From: Candidatus Marinacidobacterales bacterium
GTDB lineage: Bacteria; Acidobacteriota; Vicinamibacteria; Marinacidobacterales; DATDRI01
Assembly: GCA_965219415.1 (NCBI GenBank)
Contig: CBDCNP010000002.1
Span: 4,768,001 to 4,832,000 of the forward strand
Reading direction: 5' to 3'
DNA length: 64,000 nucleotides
The notes under the pieces are model-generated. The model saw only the letters and a program-made list of their open reading frames with translations. It was not told the DNA's origin and did not search any database. Shown here piece after piece: positions 1 through 22,953 of the stretch. A program made the position numbers and the translations under genes. The stretch's first letter is position 1, and every line of letters starts with the position of its first letter.

Positions 1-345
1 CGGTCGCGATGCCAACGGGCCACGGTGTCCGCGTGGACGATGAGCAGGCGGCTCGCCCACACGGGCCACGAACCTCGAAGGGCAACCCAGAAAGCCCGTT
101 CCGTGTCGTCGAGCGGTGGGCGTGGGCGCTCTTTCTTCAGCGCCGTCACTTGCTGCCGCAAAGCGACGTTCTCCAACACCAGGTCGGCGCGGCGCCGACA
201 CATCGCCCGAATGACACGGACGCCAAGTGAGACGAAGAAGACAACAACGTTGAGCATAGCGGCGGAGTTTCGCCGTCTTCGGCCCGGAATTCAAGCGGAG
301 CGTAAGTCCTTGATTTCGTGGGCGGAGCAGTATTGACGATGCACA
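1..345 (-). mobile_element. Left end and 5' part of an rve-integrase IS (349-aa family, IS3/IS481-like); continues beyond the window
   Basis: Near-identical to 20335-20679 and 59971-60315; terminus reads TGTGCATCGTCAA on the minus strand; ATG at 257. Confidence 0.85.
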
Positions 346-812
346 ATTTCACTTGGACTCCCCGTGGCGTAAATGTCGATCCGAGTGACCCGAGCAAACC
401 AACCCTTCTCGAAGTGTTGTTGCGGTCGCCCTCGCCCACTCACTGTGCGACCAACATAAATGCACCGTTGGTCGGCCCAGAATATGTATATGCAGCTGTT
501 ATAGCGAATGTTGTTACCGTACCAAATCTTGAAGTTCCTCTTTCGGGCGTCTATCCCCCATCCTTTGCCCCGTTTGGGGTGCCACTGCTTCTTTTGAACA
601 TCGCTAGATCGGAAGTGCTGCTTAAAGGCAGCCGGACTTTTTGCCCGTGAATATATTTCTTTGAGTAGCTCTCCGGCTTTGCGGCGTCTAGCCTGTGAAA
701 ACGAGAGCGAACGTCCCCGCGGTTTGCGAACGAGATGTCGCAGAACCGCCGTGCGAGACTTGTACAGTTGATCCAATTCCAGCTCGAACTGTTTCGCTGT
801 CCTTTCAATCAT
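346..812 (-). pseudogene. GIY-YIG nuclease-like protein, 3'-truncated by the IS end at 345
   Basis: Motif CIYIFW...CIYVGRT...GRPQQH; the ORF runs into IS sequence; lower GC than flanks. Confidence 0.6.
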
Positions 813-971
813 CTTGGAACAACCCTCCATACAGCCGCGTGCGTAGCCGCCGCCGAAAGGTTAACTTTCAGGTGCTTCTGCCATCAAGTGATGGAATGGA
901 CTCCTCCACTGACATAGACGGCATCGATGTGCCAAAGTCAGTCGAATACGCATCGAAAAGGAGGAGTCCGA

Positions 972-2003
972 ATGAAAGATACGACAATCGCTGTGGATCT
1001 TGCAAAGAACGTCTTCGAGATTGCCATCTCGGGAGAAGCGGGGAAGGTGTCCAAGCAACTCCGTGTGAGTCGACCCAAATTGGTGTCGTTCTTTGCCAAA
1101 CAGAGCGCTGCCACCGTGCTTCTCGAAGCCTGCGGCTCGGCTCACTTCTGGGCAAGGACGTTCCGAAGGTTGGGACACGACGTCGTCCTGCTCCCACCTC
1201 ACCTCGTGAGGCCGTATCGACGCGGGAGCAAGAACGACCGCGCCGACACGAAGGCGTTGCTCGAGGCCTACAGGAACGAGGAGCTTCTTCCCGTACCCAT
1301 CAAGTCCGTGCACCAGCACACCCTCGCTGCGCTCCATCGCCTGCGCTCAGGATGGCTCTCCACACGGACCGCACGCATCAATGCCGTACGCGGGCTCCTG
1401 CGCGAACTCGGATTCATCATCCCAAAGGGCGCTCACTTCGTCGTGCCCGCCCTCTTCGAACTCGTCGAAGACGCTGATTCTGATTTGCCCGACGTGCTCC
1501 GTTCGCATCTCCGTGATGCCTGCTCCGAGATTCGAGAACTCAAGGACAAGTGCGCTAGCATCGAGCACGAGCTCAAGGCGCTCACCAAGCAGCTTCCTGA
1601 AGTCCAACGACTTCTCGCCATTCCCGGCATCGGACTTCTGGCCGCGACCGCCATCGTGGGCTTCGTCGGCGATCTTCGCCGCTTCCCATCGGGGCGCCGC
1701 TTCTCGAGCTACCTCGGCCTAGTTCCCAAGGAAAACTCCAGTGGCGACATTCGCCGCCTCGGACGCATCACCAAGCGTGGCGACTCCTACCTCCGTATGC
1801 TCCTCACCCAGGGCGGGCGCGCCGTGCTCCGCGCGGCGAACGTCAGCAAGAGCCCGCCCGACAAGCTCCGCGCCTGGGCTCGGAAGGTCCACCGCTCGCG
1901 GGGACACAACAAGGCCGTGATTGCTGTCGCCAACAAACTCGCCCGGATCGTCTGGGCCGTCTCCACCCGCGAGAGTGAATTCCAGTCGCCGGTGGCCGCT
2001 TAG
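972..2003 (+). CDS. IS110-family DEDD transposase/recombinase
   Basis: IAVDLAKNVF, LEACG, KNDRADT, IPGIG, YLGLVPKENSSG, AVANKLARIVWA motifs; RBS GAGGAG at 961. Confidence 0.95.
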   Translation: MKDTTIAVDLAKNVFEIAISGEAGKVSKQLRVSRPKLVSFFAKQSAATVLLEACGSAHFWARTFRRLGHDVVLLPPHLVRPYRRGSKNDRADTKALLEAYRNEELLPVPIKSVHQHTLAALHRLRSGWLSTRTARINAVRGLLRELGFIIPKGAHFVVPALFELVEDADSDLPDVLRSHLRDACSEIRELKDKCASIEHELKALTKQLPEVQRLLAIPGIGLLAATAIVGFVGDLRRFPSGRRFSSYLGLVPKENSSGDIRRLGRITKRGDSYLRMLLTQGGRAVLRAANVSKSPPDKLRAWARKVHRSRGHNKAVIAVANKLARIVWAVSTRESEFQSPVAA

Positions 2004-2335
2004 ATTTAGAGGCTCCACTTTCGTGTTTTCCTTTTTCCCTTCCAAAAGAGGCTGCGACGATACCCATCCAACTGATGGCGTACCGGTCGGACCGGCGCGG
2101 GGTCAAGCCAATAGCAACACTGGCCCTAAGAGGTCGTTCAAAGTGATTGGCTCCTCGCGCGCGGATTTTCCATCATGGCCCGGAGCACCCAAGACGCTCC
2201 TCACTGAGGCCGAAGATACGTTTGCAGTCTGACCCACTCGTCACGACGCGATGGATGCGCAGCTTCGATGGAAGATTTATTAAGAAAGGGGCGTGACTAG
2301 AAAGAAAGGGGCTTGACTAGAGGAGTCCAGATATG
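2004..2335 (+). ncRNA. Predicted bridge RNA/seekRNA region of the IS1111-type element
   Basis: Stem AGCCAAT(2106)/ATTGGCT(2152) encloses TAGCAACACT (reverse complement of the target) and AAGTG; a second loop carries TTCCATCAT (reverse complement of the donor junction) and AGATACG; transcript ends unknown. Confidence 0.8.
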
Positions 2336-2501
2336 TTGCTAGGCCGCTAGAAGCATTTGAATGCGACCGCGTCCAATAAGAACATCGGCGCGCCTACAAA
2401 GCGTGATCTCTTCGGGCGTCTCGGTCTTATGAGCCGTGAGGTCAAGCACTTGCTCGCGCTCGGCCGGCGGATCCGAGAAGTCGGACGCTTCGCTCAGTGT
2501 T

Positions 2502-3182
2502 TCAAGAGCCCTTGAGATGTTTGCCGAAGAAAACCTGCACTCGGTTCCAGGCGTCACCTGCCGCGCTCGCGTCGTAGACGTCACGCTCGTCGTTGAAGAA
2601 CGCGTGGTCGACACCAGGGTAAATGTGAAAGTCGAGCGTGACCCCAGCGGTCTTCAGATTTCTCTCAAGCTCTCGCACCACGTCGGGGTTCACGAAGCTG
2701 TCGTTCTCGGCGAAAAGGCCGAGAACCGGAGCCTTTATAGCTTCTAGAACAGGCTTTACATTAGGATGAATGCCGTAGAAGTCAACGCAAGCCCCAACGT
2801 TCTCGTTCTTGCTCGCCGCGTACAATGCCAGCTGACCACCCATACAAAAGCCGATAATGCCGAGCCGACCTCCCGAAGAACGGCTCCCAAGATAGTCACA
2901 CGCACCGCGGAGATCCTTCTCCGCCCGATCGATGTTCAACGCCATCATGAGCTTCCCCGCGTCGTCGGGCGACGTAGTCTCTTTTCCGTGGTACAGGTCC
3001 GGTGCGAGCGCCACATAGCCGGCTGCGGCGAAACGGTCGGCCACGTTCTTGATGTGACCGACGAGACCCCACCATTCCTGGATGACGATCACCCCTGGAC
3101 CACCGCCTTCGGGCTCGCTCAGATAACCTTGAGACGAACTGCCGTTGGCCACAAACTCGACGATGGTGCCTTTCTCGGACAT
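2502..3182 (-). CDS. Dienelactone hydrolase family protein
   Basis: VIQEWWGL, APDLY, GFCMGG nucleophile motif, HAFFND. Confidence 0.93.
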   Translation of the reverse strand: MSEKGTIVEFVANGSSSQGYLSEPEGGGPGVIVIQEWWGLVGHIKNVADRFAAAGYVALAPDLYHGKETTSPDDAGKLMMALNIDRAEKDLRGACDYLGSRSSGGRLGIIGFCMGGQLALYAASKNENVGACVDFYGIHPNVKPVLEAIKAPVLGLFAENDSFVNPDVVRELERNLKTAGVTLDFHIYPGVDHAFFNDERDVYDASAAGDAWNRVQVFFGKHLKGS

Positions 3183-3644: not shown

Positions 3645-3863
3645 GGTGCTCCCGCCATCAAGTGTTGCTACGCCGTGTTTGAATGCTAATGTCAGCTGGC
3701 CTGCCTGTGTCGGCGTGCACACGAAGGTGCCCCTGAACGTCAGGCACCGTGTGGTCAGCCCAGCCCGCATCGCCGAAAGAACTGCGTCTCTCGAAATCAG
3801 GCTCGAACTCTAGCACACGAGCGGGTTACGCGGCAGCCACCAACACTTGATTGCGGAAGCACC
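3645..3863. mobile_element. ~220-bp internally deleted IS1-type element (MITE B)
   Basis: IRs GGTGCTCCCGCCATCAAGTGTTG / CAACACTTGATTGCGGAAGCACC; retains a transposase C-terminus-like frame MRAGLTTRCLTFR. Confidence 0.8.
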
Positions 3864-6451: not shown

Positions 6452-7651
6452 GGCGCTTCCGCCATCAAGTGTTGCTACGCGGCTGCGGGCAGTGGTACAG
6501 GTGCGGAAGAGACCGAGTTGCGCGCCCCAGTGAGCAGGAAAACCTCGCTCCGCGACCACAAAGGAATCGTCGTCGCCAAGAAGATGTCTCGAAAGGTGAG
6601 CCGTCGCGTCGTCAGACCGGCCTGCATAGCCGGAGTTCGGATCTCACGTCCGAACTTCAGAGCTCCGTGCGGTCGGACGAAGTTGTAATAGCAACGGAAC
6701 AACTCCAGGTGCTCATCGAGCCTCTCCGTCGAGCGAGCGTGGGAAAGTGTTCGTCTCGAAAGGTATGCCGAGCTTTGCCGGATGGTCAGATTCAACCGCT
6801 CGATGAACGACGTGTTCAATGTCGAAGAGTCCTCGGAGTTATTGAGCGCGTCTTCGAATCGCCACGCGGCTCCGTGCAGCGCTCTGCGTTCGACCTTGAT
6901 GATACGATCGTTCCTGCGCGTCTTGAGGACCTGGCCGTAAAGACACGCTGGCTCGAAGAAGCGACGGATGATCTTCTGGTAGAATTCGAATCCATCCGTG
7001 ACGATCAAGGGAAGACGCTCGAAATTCATCCGCCTCGAAAGGTCGCGAAACAGAGCGTGAGTGTTCCGGTAGCTTCGCCTTCCCGTCACCGTCGATGGCC
7101 AGAGCCGAGACCAGACCTCGATCGTAACGAAGACCCAACTCGGTGTCTTCTTGTTGCCCGCGAACGTGCGAATCTCGTCGGCTTGAAGCTCTTCGGCAGC
7201 GAAGCCAGCGATCCTTCTGTGATTGAATCGACGACACACTTGGGCTGCCTTCTCGAGCCAGCGGGCGACGGTGTTCCAGGCAATCCCTTTGATCCGGGAA
7301 ATCGAGGAAATGCTGACACCCTCGACTCTGAGAGCGATGACCACATCGAAAGTAGCTCTTCGATGTTGGAGACGGTAGTAGGGCGTGCCTTTCGTCGAGG
7401 AGAACGTCTTTCCGCACTCGCCGCACCGGTATCGACGGCGTTTCCCGGACCTGGTTCGATAGAATCCGTGGCGAACGATGTTTCCGGAACTGACTTTGCC
7501 CCGCAACGGACATGCGAGATTGAGACATCTGCGATTCTTCACTTTGGCTCGGCTCTGACGATGAGAGAACTGTGTCTTCGGAATTCTGGTTCAAACTCTA
7601 GCACGCAGACCGGTTAGGGGCTGGCCGCCAACACTTAATTGCGGAAGCACC
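6452..7651 (-). mobile_element. IS1-family-like element, 1200 bp
   Basis: Imperfect IRs GGCGCTTCCGCCATCAAGTGTTG / GGTGCTTCCGCAATTAAGTGTTG around a single transposase ORF; no target duplication seen. Confidence 0.85.
6475..7542 (-). CDS. IS1-family DDE transposase (single ORF)
   Basis: N-terminal Zn-ribbon (CLNLAC...RYRCGECGKTF), HTH, QADEI, VTDG, NTSFIERLNLTIRQ, YNFVRPH, TPAMQAGL. Confidence 0.85.
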   Translation of the reverse strand: MKNRRCLNLACPLRGKVSSGNIVRHGFYRTRSGKRRRYRCGECGKTFSSTKGTPYYRLQHRRATFDVVIALRVEGVSISSISRIKGIAWNTVARWLEKAAQVCRRFNHRRIAGFAAEELQADEIRTFAGNKKTPSWVFVTIEVWSRLWPSTVTGRRSYRNTHALFRDLSRRMNFERLPLIVTDGFEFYQKIIRRFFEPACLYGQVLKTRRNDRIIKVERRALHGAAWRFEDALNNSEDSSTLNTSFIERLNLTIRQSSAYLSRRTLSHARSTERLDEHLELFRCYYNFVRPHGALKFGREIRTPAMQAGLTTRRLTFRDIFLATTIPLWSRSEVFLLTGARNSVSSAPVPLPAAA

Positions 7652-21488: not shown

Positions 21489-22953
21489 CATATCTGGACT
21501 CCTCTAGTCACGCCCCTTTCTTTCTAGTCACGCCCCTTTCTTTCTAGTCACGCCCCTTTCTTAATAAATCTTCCATCGAAGCTGCGCATCCATCGCGTCG
21601 TGACGAGTGGGTCAGACTGCAAACGTATCTTCGGCCTCAGTGAGGAGCGTCTTGGGTGCTCCGGGCCATGATGGAAAATCCGCGCGCGAGGAGCCAATCA
21701 CTTTGAACGACCTCTTAGGGCCAGTGTTGCTATTGGCTTGACCCCGCGCCGGTCCGACCGGTACGCCATCAGTTGGATGGGTATCGTCGCAGCCTCTTTT
21801 GGAAGGGAAAAAGGAAAACACGAAAGTGGAGCCTCTAAATCTAAGCGGCCACCGGCGACTGGAATTCACTCTCGCGGGTGGAGACGGCCCAGACGATCCG
21901 GGCGAGTTTGTTGGCGACAGCAATCACGGCCTTGTTGTGTCCCCGCGAGCGGTGGACCTTCCGAGCCCAGGCGCGGAGCTTGTCGGGTGGGCTCTTGCTG
22001 ACGTTCGCCGCGCGGAGCACGGCGCGCCCGCCCTGGGTGAGGAGCATACGGAGGTAGGAGTCGCCACGCTTGGTGATGCGTCCGAGGCGGCGAATGTCGC
22101 CACTGGAGTTTTCCTTGGGAACTAGGCCGAGGTAGCTCGAGAAGCGGCGCCCCGATGGGAAGCGGCGAAGATCGCCGACGAAGCCCACGATGGCGGTCGC
22201 GGCCAGAAGTCCGATGCCGGGAATGGCGAGAAGTCGTTGGACTTCAGGAAGCTGCTTGGTGAGCGCCTTGAGCTCGTGCTCGATGCTAGCGCACTTGTCC
22301 TTGAGTTCTCGAATCTCGGAGCAGGCATCACGGAGATGCGAACGGAGCACGTCGGGCAAATCAGAATCAGCGTCTTCGACGAGTTCGAAGAGGGCGGGCA
22401 CGACGAAGTGAGCGCCCTTTGGGATGATGAATCCGAGTTCGCGCAGGAGCCCGCGTACGGCATTGATGCGTGCGGTCCGTGTGGAGAGCCATCCTGAGCG
22501 CAGGCGATGGAGCGCGGCGAGGGTGTGCTGGTGCACGGACTTGATGGGTACGGGAAGAAGCTCCTCGTTCCTGTAGGCCTCGAGCAACGCCTTCGTGTCG
22601 GCGCGGTCGTTCTTGCTCCCGCGTCGATACGGCCTCACGAGGTGAGGTGGGAGCAGGACGACGTCGTGTCCCAATCTTCGGAACGTCCTTGCCCAGAAGT
22701 GAGCCGAGCCGCAGGCTTCGAGAAGCACGGTGGCAGCGCTCTGTTTGGCAAAGAACGACACCAATTTGGGTCGACTCACACGGAGTTGCTTGGACACCTT
22801 CCCCGCTTCTCCCGAGATGGCAATCTCGAAGACGTTCTTTGCAAGATCCACAGCGATTGTCGTATCTTTCATTCGGACTCCTCCTTTTCGATGCGTATTC
22901 GACTGACTTTGGCACATCGATGCCGTCTATGTCAGTGGAGGAGTCCATTCCAT
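21489..22953 (-). mobile_element. IS110-family (IS1111 subgroup) element, copy 2, in the IR of a MITE B
   Basis: Near-identical to 891-2335; flanks rejoin to GGTGCTTCCGCCATCAAGTGTTGCTACG. Confidence 0.92.
21841..22872 (-). CDS. IS110-family DEDD transposase/recombinase
   Basis: Same protein as 972-2003. Confidence 0.95.
   Translation of the reverse strand: MKDTTIAVDLAKNVFEIAISGEAGKVSKQLRVSRPKLVSFFAKQSAATVLLEACGSAHFWARTFRRLGHDVVLLPPHLVRPYRRGSKNDRADTKALLEAYRNEELLPVPIKSVHQHTLAALHRLRSGWLSTRTARINAVRGLLRELGFIIPKGAHFVVPALFELVEDADSDLPDVLRSHLRDACSEIRELKDKCASIEHELKALTKQLPEVQRLLAIPGIGLLAATAIVGFVGDLRRFPSGRRFSSYLGLVPKENSSGDIRRLGRITKRGDSYLRMLLTQGGRAVLRAANVSKSPPDKLRAWARKVHRSRGHNKAVIAVANKLARIVWAVSTRESEFQSPVAA

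Follow-up and report, generated by a model that had tools for sequence, protein, structure and literature searches.

How does the insertion sequence at positions 891-2335 of the window (the whole 64,000-nucleotide stretch of DNA that was analysed; coordinates are window positions, on the + strand unless stated otherwise) choose its insertion site, and does an RNA encoded 3' of its recombinase gene make that choice? The element is an IS1111-type insertion sequence of the RNA-guided kind and a further example of an already known mechanism. It looks active, and we consider it very probable that an RNA from the 3' non-coding region directs its DEDD recombinase to the site.

The element, its ends and its recombinase

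The insertion sequence is 1,445 bp long including the right-hand TG, with its ends set against empty sites. Its transposase (recombinase) gene at 972-2003 encodes 343 aa, which carry the Pfam domains PF01548 (DEDD, RuvC-like, N-terminal; E = 6.9e-12) and PF02371 (C-terminal; E = 3.2e-24) and score 302.9 bits against the NCBIfam model NF033542, 'IS110 family RNA-guided transposase' (cut-off 140). The best matches among solved structures were the IS621 and ISCro4 transposases (IS621, 8wt6, E = 9.1e-8 over the C-terminal domain). In addition, residues 249-258 of the transposase, GLVPKENSSG, fit the motif GL-P----S(t)G and align with the SG of IS621; according to Siddiquee 2024, IS1111-group transposases have 330-350 aa and this motif.

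The left subterminal inverted repeat, TGGACTCCTC (897-906), is 10 nt long and 100% complementary to the right one, GAGGAGTCCA (2320-2329); the terminal extension ATGGAA (891-896) lies outside the former and the extension GATA (2330-2333) follows the latter. Subterminal inverted repeats of 7-17 bp (10 bp here) with short terminal extensions mark the IS1111 group, as do one specific insertion site and orientation, both of which were found. The junction letters are ..ATCAAG-TG(889-890)-ATGGAA on the left and ..CAGATA-TG(2334-2335)-TTGCTA on the right. Every sequence-level trait listed for the group in sections 6 and 9 of Siddiquee 2024 appears in the element at 891-2335, which supports its assignment.

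Upstream of the gene there are 81 nt of non-coding DNA (891-971), against 332 nt downstream (2004-2335). The motif GGAGGAGTCC ahead of the start codon (960-969), which overlaps the ribosome-binding site, is complementary to 898-907 and is also found upstream of the ATG in relatives. Two tandem 20-nt units, AAGAAAGGGGC[GT]TGACTAGA, lie just inside the right end (2282-2321); there are three such units in the second element of the window and one in a 98% relative. When other IS110-family elements were sought in the genome as an internal control, only two distant fragments were found, with 27% and 31% identity.

A predicted structured RNA 3' of the gene

The predicted bridge RNA or long seekRNA has a conserved structured core of eight covarying helices at about 2050-2229. 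The fold is shared by 17 relatives with 46-94% protein identity. Across its 41 pairs, 89.4% of the cells were paired, compared to 32-45% when the partners were slid; 22 of the 41 pairs had changed on both sides, and five measures were reached by none of 500 shuffles. The sequence-only reading had called this region a bridge RNA or seekRNA, and on comparison of homologues its core fold does covary. Within the genome, the RNA core is identical in 27 of 31 copies, and the substitution T2134C in three genomic copies turns a G-U pair into a G-C pair.

Folding of the single sequence gave z = -3.3 for 2004-2335 and z = -2.3 for 2048-2232. In the minimum-energy fold, 2073-2078 pairs locally and without 2170-2175, so the helix formed by these two segments (Px, below) comes from the comparison of relatives only. 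A search of 700-2600 against Rfam (E up to 10) returned no fitting family, and its four weak matches were antisense inside the gene. A promoter scan of 800-2450 gave no sigma-70-like sites, and inspection of the junction by eye gave no convincing promoter, as only 13 nt separate TTGACT (2311-2316) from TATGAT on the far side of the junction.

Two contigs touch this region, both from RNA libraries of a kind in which DNA can be present. One, a sponge metatranscriptome contig of 152 nt (X20), runs through the stop codon and is identical to 1907-2058. A contig from a marine-sediment RNA library (X18) matches 2082-2102 and 2206-2232 with 99 other letters between them, and reads as a relative with other loops. 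The contigs give no RNA start, end, strand or level.

Target guides follow the flanks among relatives

The target-binding domain (2106-2152) consists of helices 5 and 6, which are 90.3% and 93.3% paired. It has a stem (2106-2109/2149-2152), an internal loop and an inner hairpin (2121-2125/2132-2136); in this copy the stem extends to 7 pairs (AGCCAAT/ATTGGCT, 2106-2112/2146-2152). The right target guide, UAGCAACACU (TAGCAACACT as DNA; 2112-2121), is complementary to the top strand AG-TG-TTGCTA. Of 20,000 first-order Markov shuffles of 2004-2300, 34 attained an antisense match of this length (10 nt) spanning the target junction. The left target guide, UCAAAGUG (TCAAAGTG as DNA; 2138-2145), corresponds in sense to TCAAG-TG apart from an additional (bulged) A. 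It carries the sense of the left flank and core and can therefore pair with the bottom strand. Its contiguous match is AAGUG only, and AAGTG was reached in 7,584 of the 20,000 shuffles, which is the chance level. The top-strand match lies 5' of the bottom-strand match, the order given for IS1111 elements in Siddiquee 2024.

Guides and flanks were then compared by permutation among 11-14 distinct relatives, whose kinship makes the resulting figures overstate independence. The mean longest match of the right target guide was 7.0 with its own flank and 3.46 with those of others (0 of 100,000 permutations), and that of the left target guide was 3.75 and 2.78, respectively (48 of 100,000). For instance, a 61% relative carries GCAACUGCG and GUCCGGACG for the flanks GTCCAGA-YG-CAGTTGC. 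In three relatives (L121, L124 and L129), agreement between the left target guide and the left flank is limited to 2-3 nt plus CG. The right-flank set excluded L124 and L129, as both have their target in common with L121, and the left-flank set excluded L122, whose contig stops at that point. The single copies L039 and L089, for which the right flank could not be placed with certainty, did not enter the flank tests. The permutation sets also excluded L136, with a 5'-truncated gene and a guide that has no match to its flank, and L142, a sister of L128 with an exact left guide and a right guide that matches poorly.

Covariation of the target-loop guides with the flanks across relatives supports a guide role for both segments. 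The sequence-only reading had placed the stem and both guide strings of this loop at the positions given above, and they are there. Its antisense guide holds in the single sequence, whereas its sense-strand guide is recovered through the relatives only.

The donor side and helix Px

For the donor junction, the right guide candidate is UUCCAUCAU (TTCCATCAT as DNA; 2168-2176), which is complementary to A-TG-ATGGAA. An antisense match of 9 nt across the donor junction was reached by 82 of 20,000 shuffles, and antisense matches of at least 9 nt to both the target and the donor junction by 3 of 20,000. Among relatives, UUCCAUCAU and its counterparts matched their own left ends at 5.71 and those of others at 4.87 (387 of 100,000 permutations). 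However, bases 2170-2175 of this segment form helix Px (helix 2) with UGAUGG at 2073-2078, the 5' strand of the helix, whose letters are the same as those of the donor top strand TG-ATGG. Px is 92.6% paired with 3 pairs changed on both sides, and its covariation was reached in 1 of 100,000 permutations, compared to the 387 for UUCCAUCAU with the left end. UGAUGG/CCAUCA is replaced by AAAUGG/CCAUUU in the 61% relative and by AGAUGG/CCAUCU in L123, and in both of these and in ISPa25 the two core-facing bases of 2168-2176 follow Px and not the DNA core. UUCCAUCAU matches the left end here and pairs with 2073-2078 family-wide; we treat it as a candidate guide.

The left donor guide, AGAUACG (2214-2220), corresponds in sense to the right end AGATA and the core, with CG where the element has TG. 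As DNA, AGATACG has no exact donor match and is not above chance in this one sequence. Among relatives, the segment matched its own right end at 6.38 and those of others at 5.29 (27 of 100,000 permutations). It reads ATATA/TATA in all 4 relatives with the right end CCATATA and AGATATG in the 94% relatives, and in L133 both the guide and the junction have GG. The C in AGATACG, which the sequence-only reading had counted as one mismatch, belongs to the ancestral CG of the family and is no error; relatives insert at CG targets. On the other side of the donor junction, L131 has CC in the 5' donor segment opposite a GG left junction, and the 61% relative has UCCCAU for ATGGGA where the window element has UUCCAU for ATGGAA.

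The second loop had been drawn around a stem of GCGGAT (2161-2166) and GTTTGC (2220-2225). These strings and both donor segments lie where they were reported, and the stem forms 6 pairs here, 3 of them G-U. In relatives, however, pairing over its last three pairs is 45.5% and none of its pairs has changed on both sides: the stem is present here but not conserved. Similarly, of the two donor guides proposed, AGAUACG does track the right end, and UUCCAUCAU does have its antisense match but lies in a conserved helix. Compared to a two-loop arrangement of the IS621 type, the left donor guide covaries but mismatches the core (C for U), and the right one lies within Px. The 28-mer of the expected circle junction has no occurrence in the assembly.

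It is conceivable, although we hold it to be unlikely, that the target loop is the only true guide, that 2168-2176 is a structural strand of Px, and that the protein reads the ends through the subterminal inverted repeats. The compensatory changes that keep Px in the 61% relative and L123, the mismatch of the core-facing bases to the donor core in these two and ISPa25, and the lack of conservation of the loop-2 stem all accord with such an arrangement; furthermore, an 82-nt seekRNA was sufficient for movement of ISEc11 in Siddiquee 2024, and the donor part of the RNA may therefore be dispensable. It is harder to reconcile with the way AGAUACG tracks the right end (in the CCATATA relatives, L133 with GG and the 94% relatives with UG) or with the left-junction changes in L131 and the 61% relative, and the legend of Extended Data Fig. 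10c in Durrant 2024 has donor loops coloured in IS1111 members.

Occupied and empty sites in the genome

About 30 near-full copies of the element are present in the genome: 27 of 36 matches cover 1,459 or more of the 1,461 query bases, and another 3 cover 1,422-1,442. One of these copies is the second in the window (21489-22953, - strand; contig positions 4790953 and 4789490 at its ends), which has 1,465 bp, three 20-nt units and the same target. The common site ATCAAG-TG-TTGCTA adjoins every one of the 32 left ends, and 30 of the 32 right ends. Its left half forms the beginning of the inverted-repeat end belonging to an IS1-like repeat family, GGTGCTTC[CT]GCCATCAAG (871-888); all 32 left ends carry these letters, and the sequences farther upstream diverge. 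The right half is TTGCTA with the continuation of the repeat (2336-2348), and G-TTGCTA follows 30 of the 32 right ends. In agreement with these limits, BLAST similarity between copies begins at 871 and stops near 2348. The core TG is seen at both junctions (889-890 and 2334-2335), in the junction letters and in the genome copies, as the sequence-only reading had it for this element. A left-junction TG also occurs in relatives with CG targets, and by analogy the TG at 889-890 would be the element's own copy.

The target ATCAAG-TG-TTGCTA, previously reconstructed from the flanks, exists uninterrupted. Exact empty targets, ATCAAGTGTTGCTA, occur twice in the window, at 3657-3670 and 6464-6477, where none is expected by chance (100 shuffles). 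In the genome there are 105 ATCAAG-TG-TTGCTA sites, 28 occupied and 77 empty. The site is hosted by a 1.2-kb IS1-like element and by miniature derivatives of it, 20 nt inside their inverted-repeat end; this repeat has ~485-525 ends in the genome together with an IS1-like transposase. Sites with the left half ATCAAG-TG and TTGGTG on the right were never occupied (0 of 48), and all TTGG.. right-half variants combined were occupied once in 61 (Fisher p = 1e-5 against the TTGCTA sites). In addition, a 94% relative has insertions outside the repeat, at TTCAAG-TG-TTGCTT (L069) and ATCAAG-TG-TTGCTG (L070), where only the guide-matched letters are kept.

Since nearly all copies lie in the end of one repeat family, which has many ends and a transposase of its own in this genome, the constant flanks could in principle arise without targeting, through carriage by the transposase of the miniature repeat or recognition of the repeat end by the protein alone. 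This is very improbable: by our reading of the flank alignment the copies lie in at least 3 repeat bodies and their right flanks belong to at least 3 repeat families, many sites are empty, occupancy tracks six guide-matched letters, insertions outside repeats keep only the guide-matched 13-14 nt, and the guides of relatives change with their targets. Least probable of all is that the complementarities arose by chance or are relics, with the 3' region no more than an untranslated tail or terminator, for which the chance-level sense-strand matches in the single sequence and the empty promoter scan may be cited, against joint antisense matches in 3 of 20,000 shuffles, a covarying fold, significant guide-flank permutation tests and homology of the 3' region to the non-coding region of ISPa25.

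Comparison with known RNA-guided elements

ISPa25 is the nearest named protein match in the plasmid collection (45.9% identity over 99% of the protein). Its ends, TG-ATGGAATGGACTCCTCC ... GGAGGAGTCCATATA, are the same as those of the window element, and so is the RNA layout of its 3' region, with 56% identity, 30 of 41 pairs and the same guide order. A seekRNA that co-purified and was tested is described for ISKpn4 and ISPst6, of the IS1111-attC group, in Siddiquee 2024. According to Table 1 of PMC13604230, ISPa25, ISKpn4 and ISPst6 insert at one end of integron attC sites, e.g. GACCTTGAG*CGACTTGTTAG. In contrast, the site of the window element is the inverted-repeat end of an IS1-like element; insertion at an attC end, which defines the IS1111-attC group, was not found for it. 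Its target core is TG and not CG, and both target guides have changed to match. The relatives L121, L124 and L129 have targets like the one printed for ISPa25. We would class the window element as kin of the IS1111-attC group and not as a member by target. Literature on IS1111-attC and ISPa25 gave no mention of Marinacidobacterales among the matches listed.

ISEc11, which has been reprogrammed experimentally, likewise has a downstream non-coding region with short and long RNA forms and two overlapping target matches, the top-strand match being 5'; it differs in having a linear, non-repeat target. The bridge RNA of IS621 (Durrant 2024, Hiraizumi 2024) serves an enzyme of the same family (8wt6, E = 9.1e-8 over the C-terminal domain), and there too the two sides of an internal loop act as guides to opposite strands, with a 2-nt core as their overlap. 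IS621 differs in that its RNA lies 5' of the gene, the guide order is reversed and the subterminal repeats are of 2-3 bp, not 10 bp; in the window element, moreover, the donor side lacks a clean internal loop. An earlier IS1111-type element at the inverted-repeat end of another transposon, judged by the title of the report only, concerned a different family of host transposon.

A model for targeting and the question of strand exchange

In the preferred reading, an RNA-guided recombinase, the target guides UAGCAACACU (top strand, core and right flank) and UCAAAGUG (bottom strand) together define ATCAAG-TG-TTGCTA. On the donor side, AGAUACG reads the right end on the bottom strand, and UUCCAUCAU can read the core and left end on the top strand of the abutted junction. 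By analogy with the families described in Siddiquee 2024 and Durrant 2024, the element would be excised as a circle with abutted ends, the RNA would come from the transposase transcript or a junction promoter, and a recombinase tetramer would exchange strands at TG. The expected circle junction is ..CCAGATA-TG-ATGGAATGG.., also written ..GGAGTCCAGATA-TG-ATGGAATGGACTCC.. The fold covariation, the guide-flank covariation and the within-genome site occupancy support the RNA-programmed recombinase of the sequence-only reading. To call it a candidate orthologue for reprogramming, with a TG core, seems fair, though the kind is already known.

The junctions of relatives add an asymmetry. In one family with a CG target, all 9 copies have TG at the left junction, and 6 of 8 have CG at the right one; the same TG-left/CG-right pattern is found in other relatives with CG empty targets, ISPa25 included. 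On the RNA side, such relatives have a 5' donor segment that reads TG (top strand) and a 3' donor guide that reads CG (bottom strand). The asymmetry does not fit a symmetric two-strand exchange with random segregation. It does fit a mismatched circle junction or insertion by the top strand alone, which Sun et al. propose for an IS110 element. We suggest, tentatively, that the clade may record its own rule of strand exchange, in which either the top strand alone decides the insertion or the circle junction is mismatched; the window lineage would then have moved to a TG target and removed the mismatch, and Px could possibly act as a gate, keeping the donor guide hidden before RNA loading.

The TG/CG asymmetry of the relatives is relevant to whether these enzymes exchange a single strand or both. 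In addition, this genome forms a natural data set, with 31 guide RNAs that are nearly identical, ~400 near-miss sites and 105 perfect ones, from which specificity can be read directly. The element comes from a little-studied order of marine Acidobacteriota, in which relatives are named Candidatus Marinacidobacterales, and its relatives document retargeting from attC-like sites to a transposon end.

Ends and gene content of the element

Re-reading of positions 1-3000 reproduced all the strings and coordinates of the sequence-only reading. Read directly from the window, the junctions are ..GCCATCAAG-TG-ATGGAATGGACTCC.. on the left (TG at 889-890) and ..GGAGTCCAGATA-TG-TTGCTAGG.. on the right (TG at 2334-2335). 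[quoted passage not shown] The circle junction was found nowhere in the whole assembly. Between the junctions, an ORF at 972-2003 encodes a 343-aa transposase with the domains PF01548 (DEDD_Tnp_IS110) and PF02371; it scored 302.9 bits (cut-off 140) with NCBIfam NF033542, 'IS110 family RNA-guided transposase', and its nearest solved structures are the ISCro4 and IS621 transposases. Residues 249-258 form the motif GLVPKENSSG, a perfect 10-bp inverted repeat (897-906/2320-2329) lies 6 bases inside the left end and 4 inside the right, and the non-coding sequence measures 332 nt 3' of the gene versus 81 nt 5'. Subterminal repeats, the motif and a longer 3' non-coding stretch are among the criteria given by Siddiquee et al. 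(2024, PMC11187229) for dividing the IS1111 group from IS110.

Two further features were observed near the ends. Positions 898-907, which overlap the left subterminal repeat, are complementary to GGAGGAGTCC (960-969) at the ribosome-binding site, a motif retained among relatives; in transcripts that read through from outside, the predicted hairpin could mask this site. Next to the right end, on its inner side, a 20-nt unit occurs twice in the first element (2282-2321), three times in the second (21503-21562, minus strand) and once in the relative of 98% identity; it includes TTGACT/GTGACT, which might be the -35 box of a putative junction promoter.

A conserved RNA fold 3' of the gene

Matches at E <=1e-70 were found in 19 of 401 genomes sampled from the phylum, the window's own counted. 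No copy turned up in the seven same-family genomes searched; another family of the same order carries the element at 93-98% identity, and remoter kin show 54-61%, these genomes being named Candidatus Marinacidobacterales, class Vicinamibacteria. A single RNA layout is common to every relative whose 3' region could be read. We scored an eight-helix model on an 18-row alignment of these regions (A1), comprising an outer helix (2050-2055/2224-2229), Px (2073-2078/2170-2175), P0 (2083-2086/2092-2095), P1 (2096-2101/2154-2159), P2 (2106-2109/2149-2152), P3 (2121-2125/2132-2136), P5 (2176-2180/2208-2212) and P6 (2182-2186/2196-2200). In this fold 89.4% of cells were paired versus 32-45% with partners slid, 22 of 41 pairs had changes on both sides, and none of five measures was equalled in 500 shuffles. 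The loop-1 stem proposed earlier is P2, lengthened to 7 pairs in the window copy. The proposed loop-2 stem (GCGGAT 2161-2166/GTTTGC 2220-2225) stood up less well: the first three pairs, 96.2% paired, never changed on both sides and are in competition with the outer helix, and the other three were 45.5% paired. Among 31 copies of the RNA region in the genome, 27 are identical, and T2134C in three converts a P3 G-U pair to G-C.

Separately, record 14 of run X18, from a marine-sediment RNA library, is a 187-nt contig matching 2082-2102 and 2206-2232, with 99 differing letters between the matches versus 103 in the window. It represents a relative that combines this scaffold with different loops.

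Guides follow the flanks of each element

Using the names of Durrant (PMC11208160), the left and right target guides lie at 2138-2145 and 2112-2121, and the left and right donor guides at 2214-2220 and 2168-2176. The guide order inside each loop is opposite to that of IS621, a reversal that Siddiquee 2024 (PMC11187229) describes as an IS1111 trait. Region 2004-2300 was shuffled 20,000 times by a Markov model: 34 shuffles equalled the 10 nt of antisense matching at the target junction, 82 equalled the 9 nt at the donor junction, and 3 matched both junctions at once over at least 9 nt. The sense-strand segments alone reached no significance in these shuffles (AAGTG was equalled in 7,584).

We then compared the A1 loop columns with the junctions of each element, scoring the mean longest exact match and counting how many of 100,000 permutations reached it (in brackets). 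The 5' target segment matched its own core and right flank at 7.0 versus 3.46 for others' (0 permutations), the 3' target segment its left flank at 3.75 versus 2.78 (48), the 3' donor segment the right end and core at 6.38 versus 5.29 (27), and the 5' donor segment the core and left end at 5.71 versus 4.87 (387), figures that exaggerate independence since the rows are kin. For example, the 61% relative pairs guides GCAACUGCG and GUCCGGACG with flanks GTCCAGA-YG-CAGTTGC; the L125 family has UAGCAGCC and UCACCA-CG with TTCACCA-YG-GGCTGCTA; and the locus L130 has the reverse complement of ACGCTCCTAG and CUCGGA-CG with ACTCGGA-TG .. CA-CGCTCCTAG. In four relatives with the right end CCATATA, the donor segment is ATATA or TATA, not AGATA. 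Loci L121, L124 and L129 are counter-examples, their 3' target segment matching just 2-3 nt plus CG.

Site choice within the genome was also consistent with the target guides. Allowing up to 3 mismatches to the 16-nt left flank gave 525 sites. Of these, ATCAAG-TG-TTGCTA was occupied 28 times and empty 77 times. The corresponding counts were 0 and 48 for ATCAAG-TG-TTGGTG, 1 and 1 for ATCAAG-TG-TTGGCG, 0 and 8 for ATCAAG-TG-TTGGTA, and 0 and 3 for ATCAAG-TG-TTGGCA; three more of the occupied sites are truncated, and another is a rearranged copy. Occupancy was thus 28/105 for TTGCTA versus 1/61 for the TTGG variants (Fisher p = 1e-5), and the six deciding letters are those complementary to 2113-2118. 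Furthermore, insertions of the 94% relative outside the repeat retain the guide-matched letters only (L069, TTCAAG-TG-TTGCTT; L070, ATCAAG-TG-TTGCTG).

The donor side and helix Px

These results collectively confirm the original observation and support its RNA-guided reading; its donor side required correction. The right donor guide (2168-2176) overlaps one strand of Px, and the covariation of Px is no weaker than that between this guide and the left end (1 versus 387 of 100,000 permutations). In the 61% relative (AAAUGG/CCAUUU), L123 (AGAUGG/CCAUCU) and likewise ISPa25 (UCAUGG/CCAUGA), the two core-facing bases track Px, not the DNA. Either donor binding opens Px, or the guide is only the bases 5' of Px, or recognition of the left end falls to the protein. 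The last of these, with 2168-2176 simply a strand of Px, is the main rival; it is favoured by the covariation of Px and by the report that an 82-nt RNA was enough for ISEc11 movement (PMC11187229).

The target is the end of an IS1-like transposon

In the 8.05-Mb assembly (3 contigs), 27 of 36 matches to the element extend over 1,459 or more of the 1,461 query bases and three others over 1,422-1,442; the window itself holds a second copy at 21489-22953 (minus strand). Every one of the 32 left ends has GGTGCTTC[CT]GC[CT]ATCAAGTG before it, with unrelated sequences farther out, and G-TTGCTA comes next at 30 of 32 right ends. The target (871-890 and 2336-2348 in the window) forms the opening 20-26 nt of a repeat, of which the genome has ~485-525 ends. 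Inverted pairs of these ends are most often spaced by ~1,200 bp (a 10-bp bin holding 25 pairs), with a second group at ~240 bp. The 355-aa product of the 1.2-kb unit (L161, G000:C3:2998401-2999800) matches the model NF033558 for IS1 transposases at E 2.6e-23 and 83 bits, short of the cut-off of 100. Since the target is the end of this IS1-like unit, the window element is parasitic on the end of another transposon and its miniature derivatives. Of 41 related genomes, 13 contain the unbroken 23-mer (<=1 mismatch), a few of them without having the element; none remains for the 94% relative and two for the 98% relative, and it looks as if their targets have been consumed.

Several observations adjoin these. 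In genomes G016 and G034, matches to the transposase number 16 for the 94% relative, which has several insertions at degenerate sites, and 22 for the 98% relative. The target is also the end of miniature derivatives of ~240 bp and ~79 bp, and nearly all the repeat ends lie on contig 3 at 1.8-5.7 Mb. A further repeat, ..TGCCAAAACT[CT][GA]GCCC[CT]TTT[GA]AA[AT]AG[AG]CC, adjoins the target start in 4 of 32 copies (contig-3 left flanks 4353104, 5075522, 5113834 and 5599450) and follows TTGCTACGCC at some empty sites; it may be another element exploiting the same repeat end. Some copies carry a second RNA module (L049/L066, a 94% relative, and G000:C3:3315113-3315411): L049 has a tandem duplication beginning at GATGGCG, and in the window's genome a right end runs on into an additional non-coding region, entered at position 2050, with its own right end.

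Origin of the junction cores

Copies of the L125 family carry TG at the left junction (9 of 9) and mostly CG at the right (6 of 8); the empty sites read T[CT]CACCA-CG-G[AG]CTGCTAG in 2 of 3 genomes. ISPa25 (L160) shows the same pattern relative to its printed target. A left TG and right CG at CG targets place the origin of the left core in the element and of the right core in the target, a conclusion resting on few families and uninformative on the window element, both of whose cores are TG. The asymmetry suggests top-strand-determined junctions or a mismatched circle; top-strand-determined insertion, proposed for an IS110 element in a preprint, would predict it. Across L125-L147, L121-L129 and L160, with left TG, mostly right CG and CG empty targets, TG stands in the 5' donor segment and CG in the 3' donor guide.

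Relationship to ISPa25

The top named match to the transposase in the plasmid collection was ISPa25 (45.9% identity), with junctions GACCTTGAG-TG-ATGGAATGGACTCC and GTCCATATA-CG-ACTTGTTAG on NZ_CP137509.1. Its 3' region is 56% identical to the window RNA, with standard pairs at 30 of 41 positions. ISPa25, ISKpn4 and ISPst6 target attC sites, and RNA co-purified with its own transposase for ISKpn4 and ISPst6 (Siddiquee 2024). The targets of L121, L124 and L129 resemble the printed ISPa25 target. Both target guides of the window lineage have changed from ..CG to ..CA/..UG, fitting the TG site. By these comparisons, the window lineage looks like a branch of the ISPa25 clade retargeted to a transposon end. 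What is new is a further RNA-guided IS1111-type element, the mechanism itself being already known; it offers a natural specificity data set and a possible TG-core orthologue.
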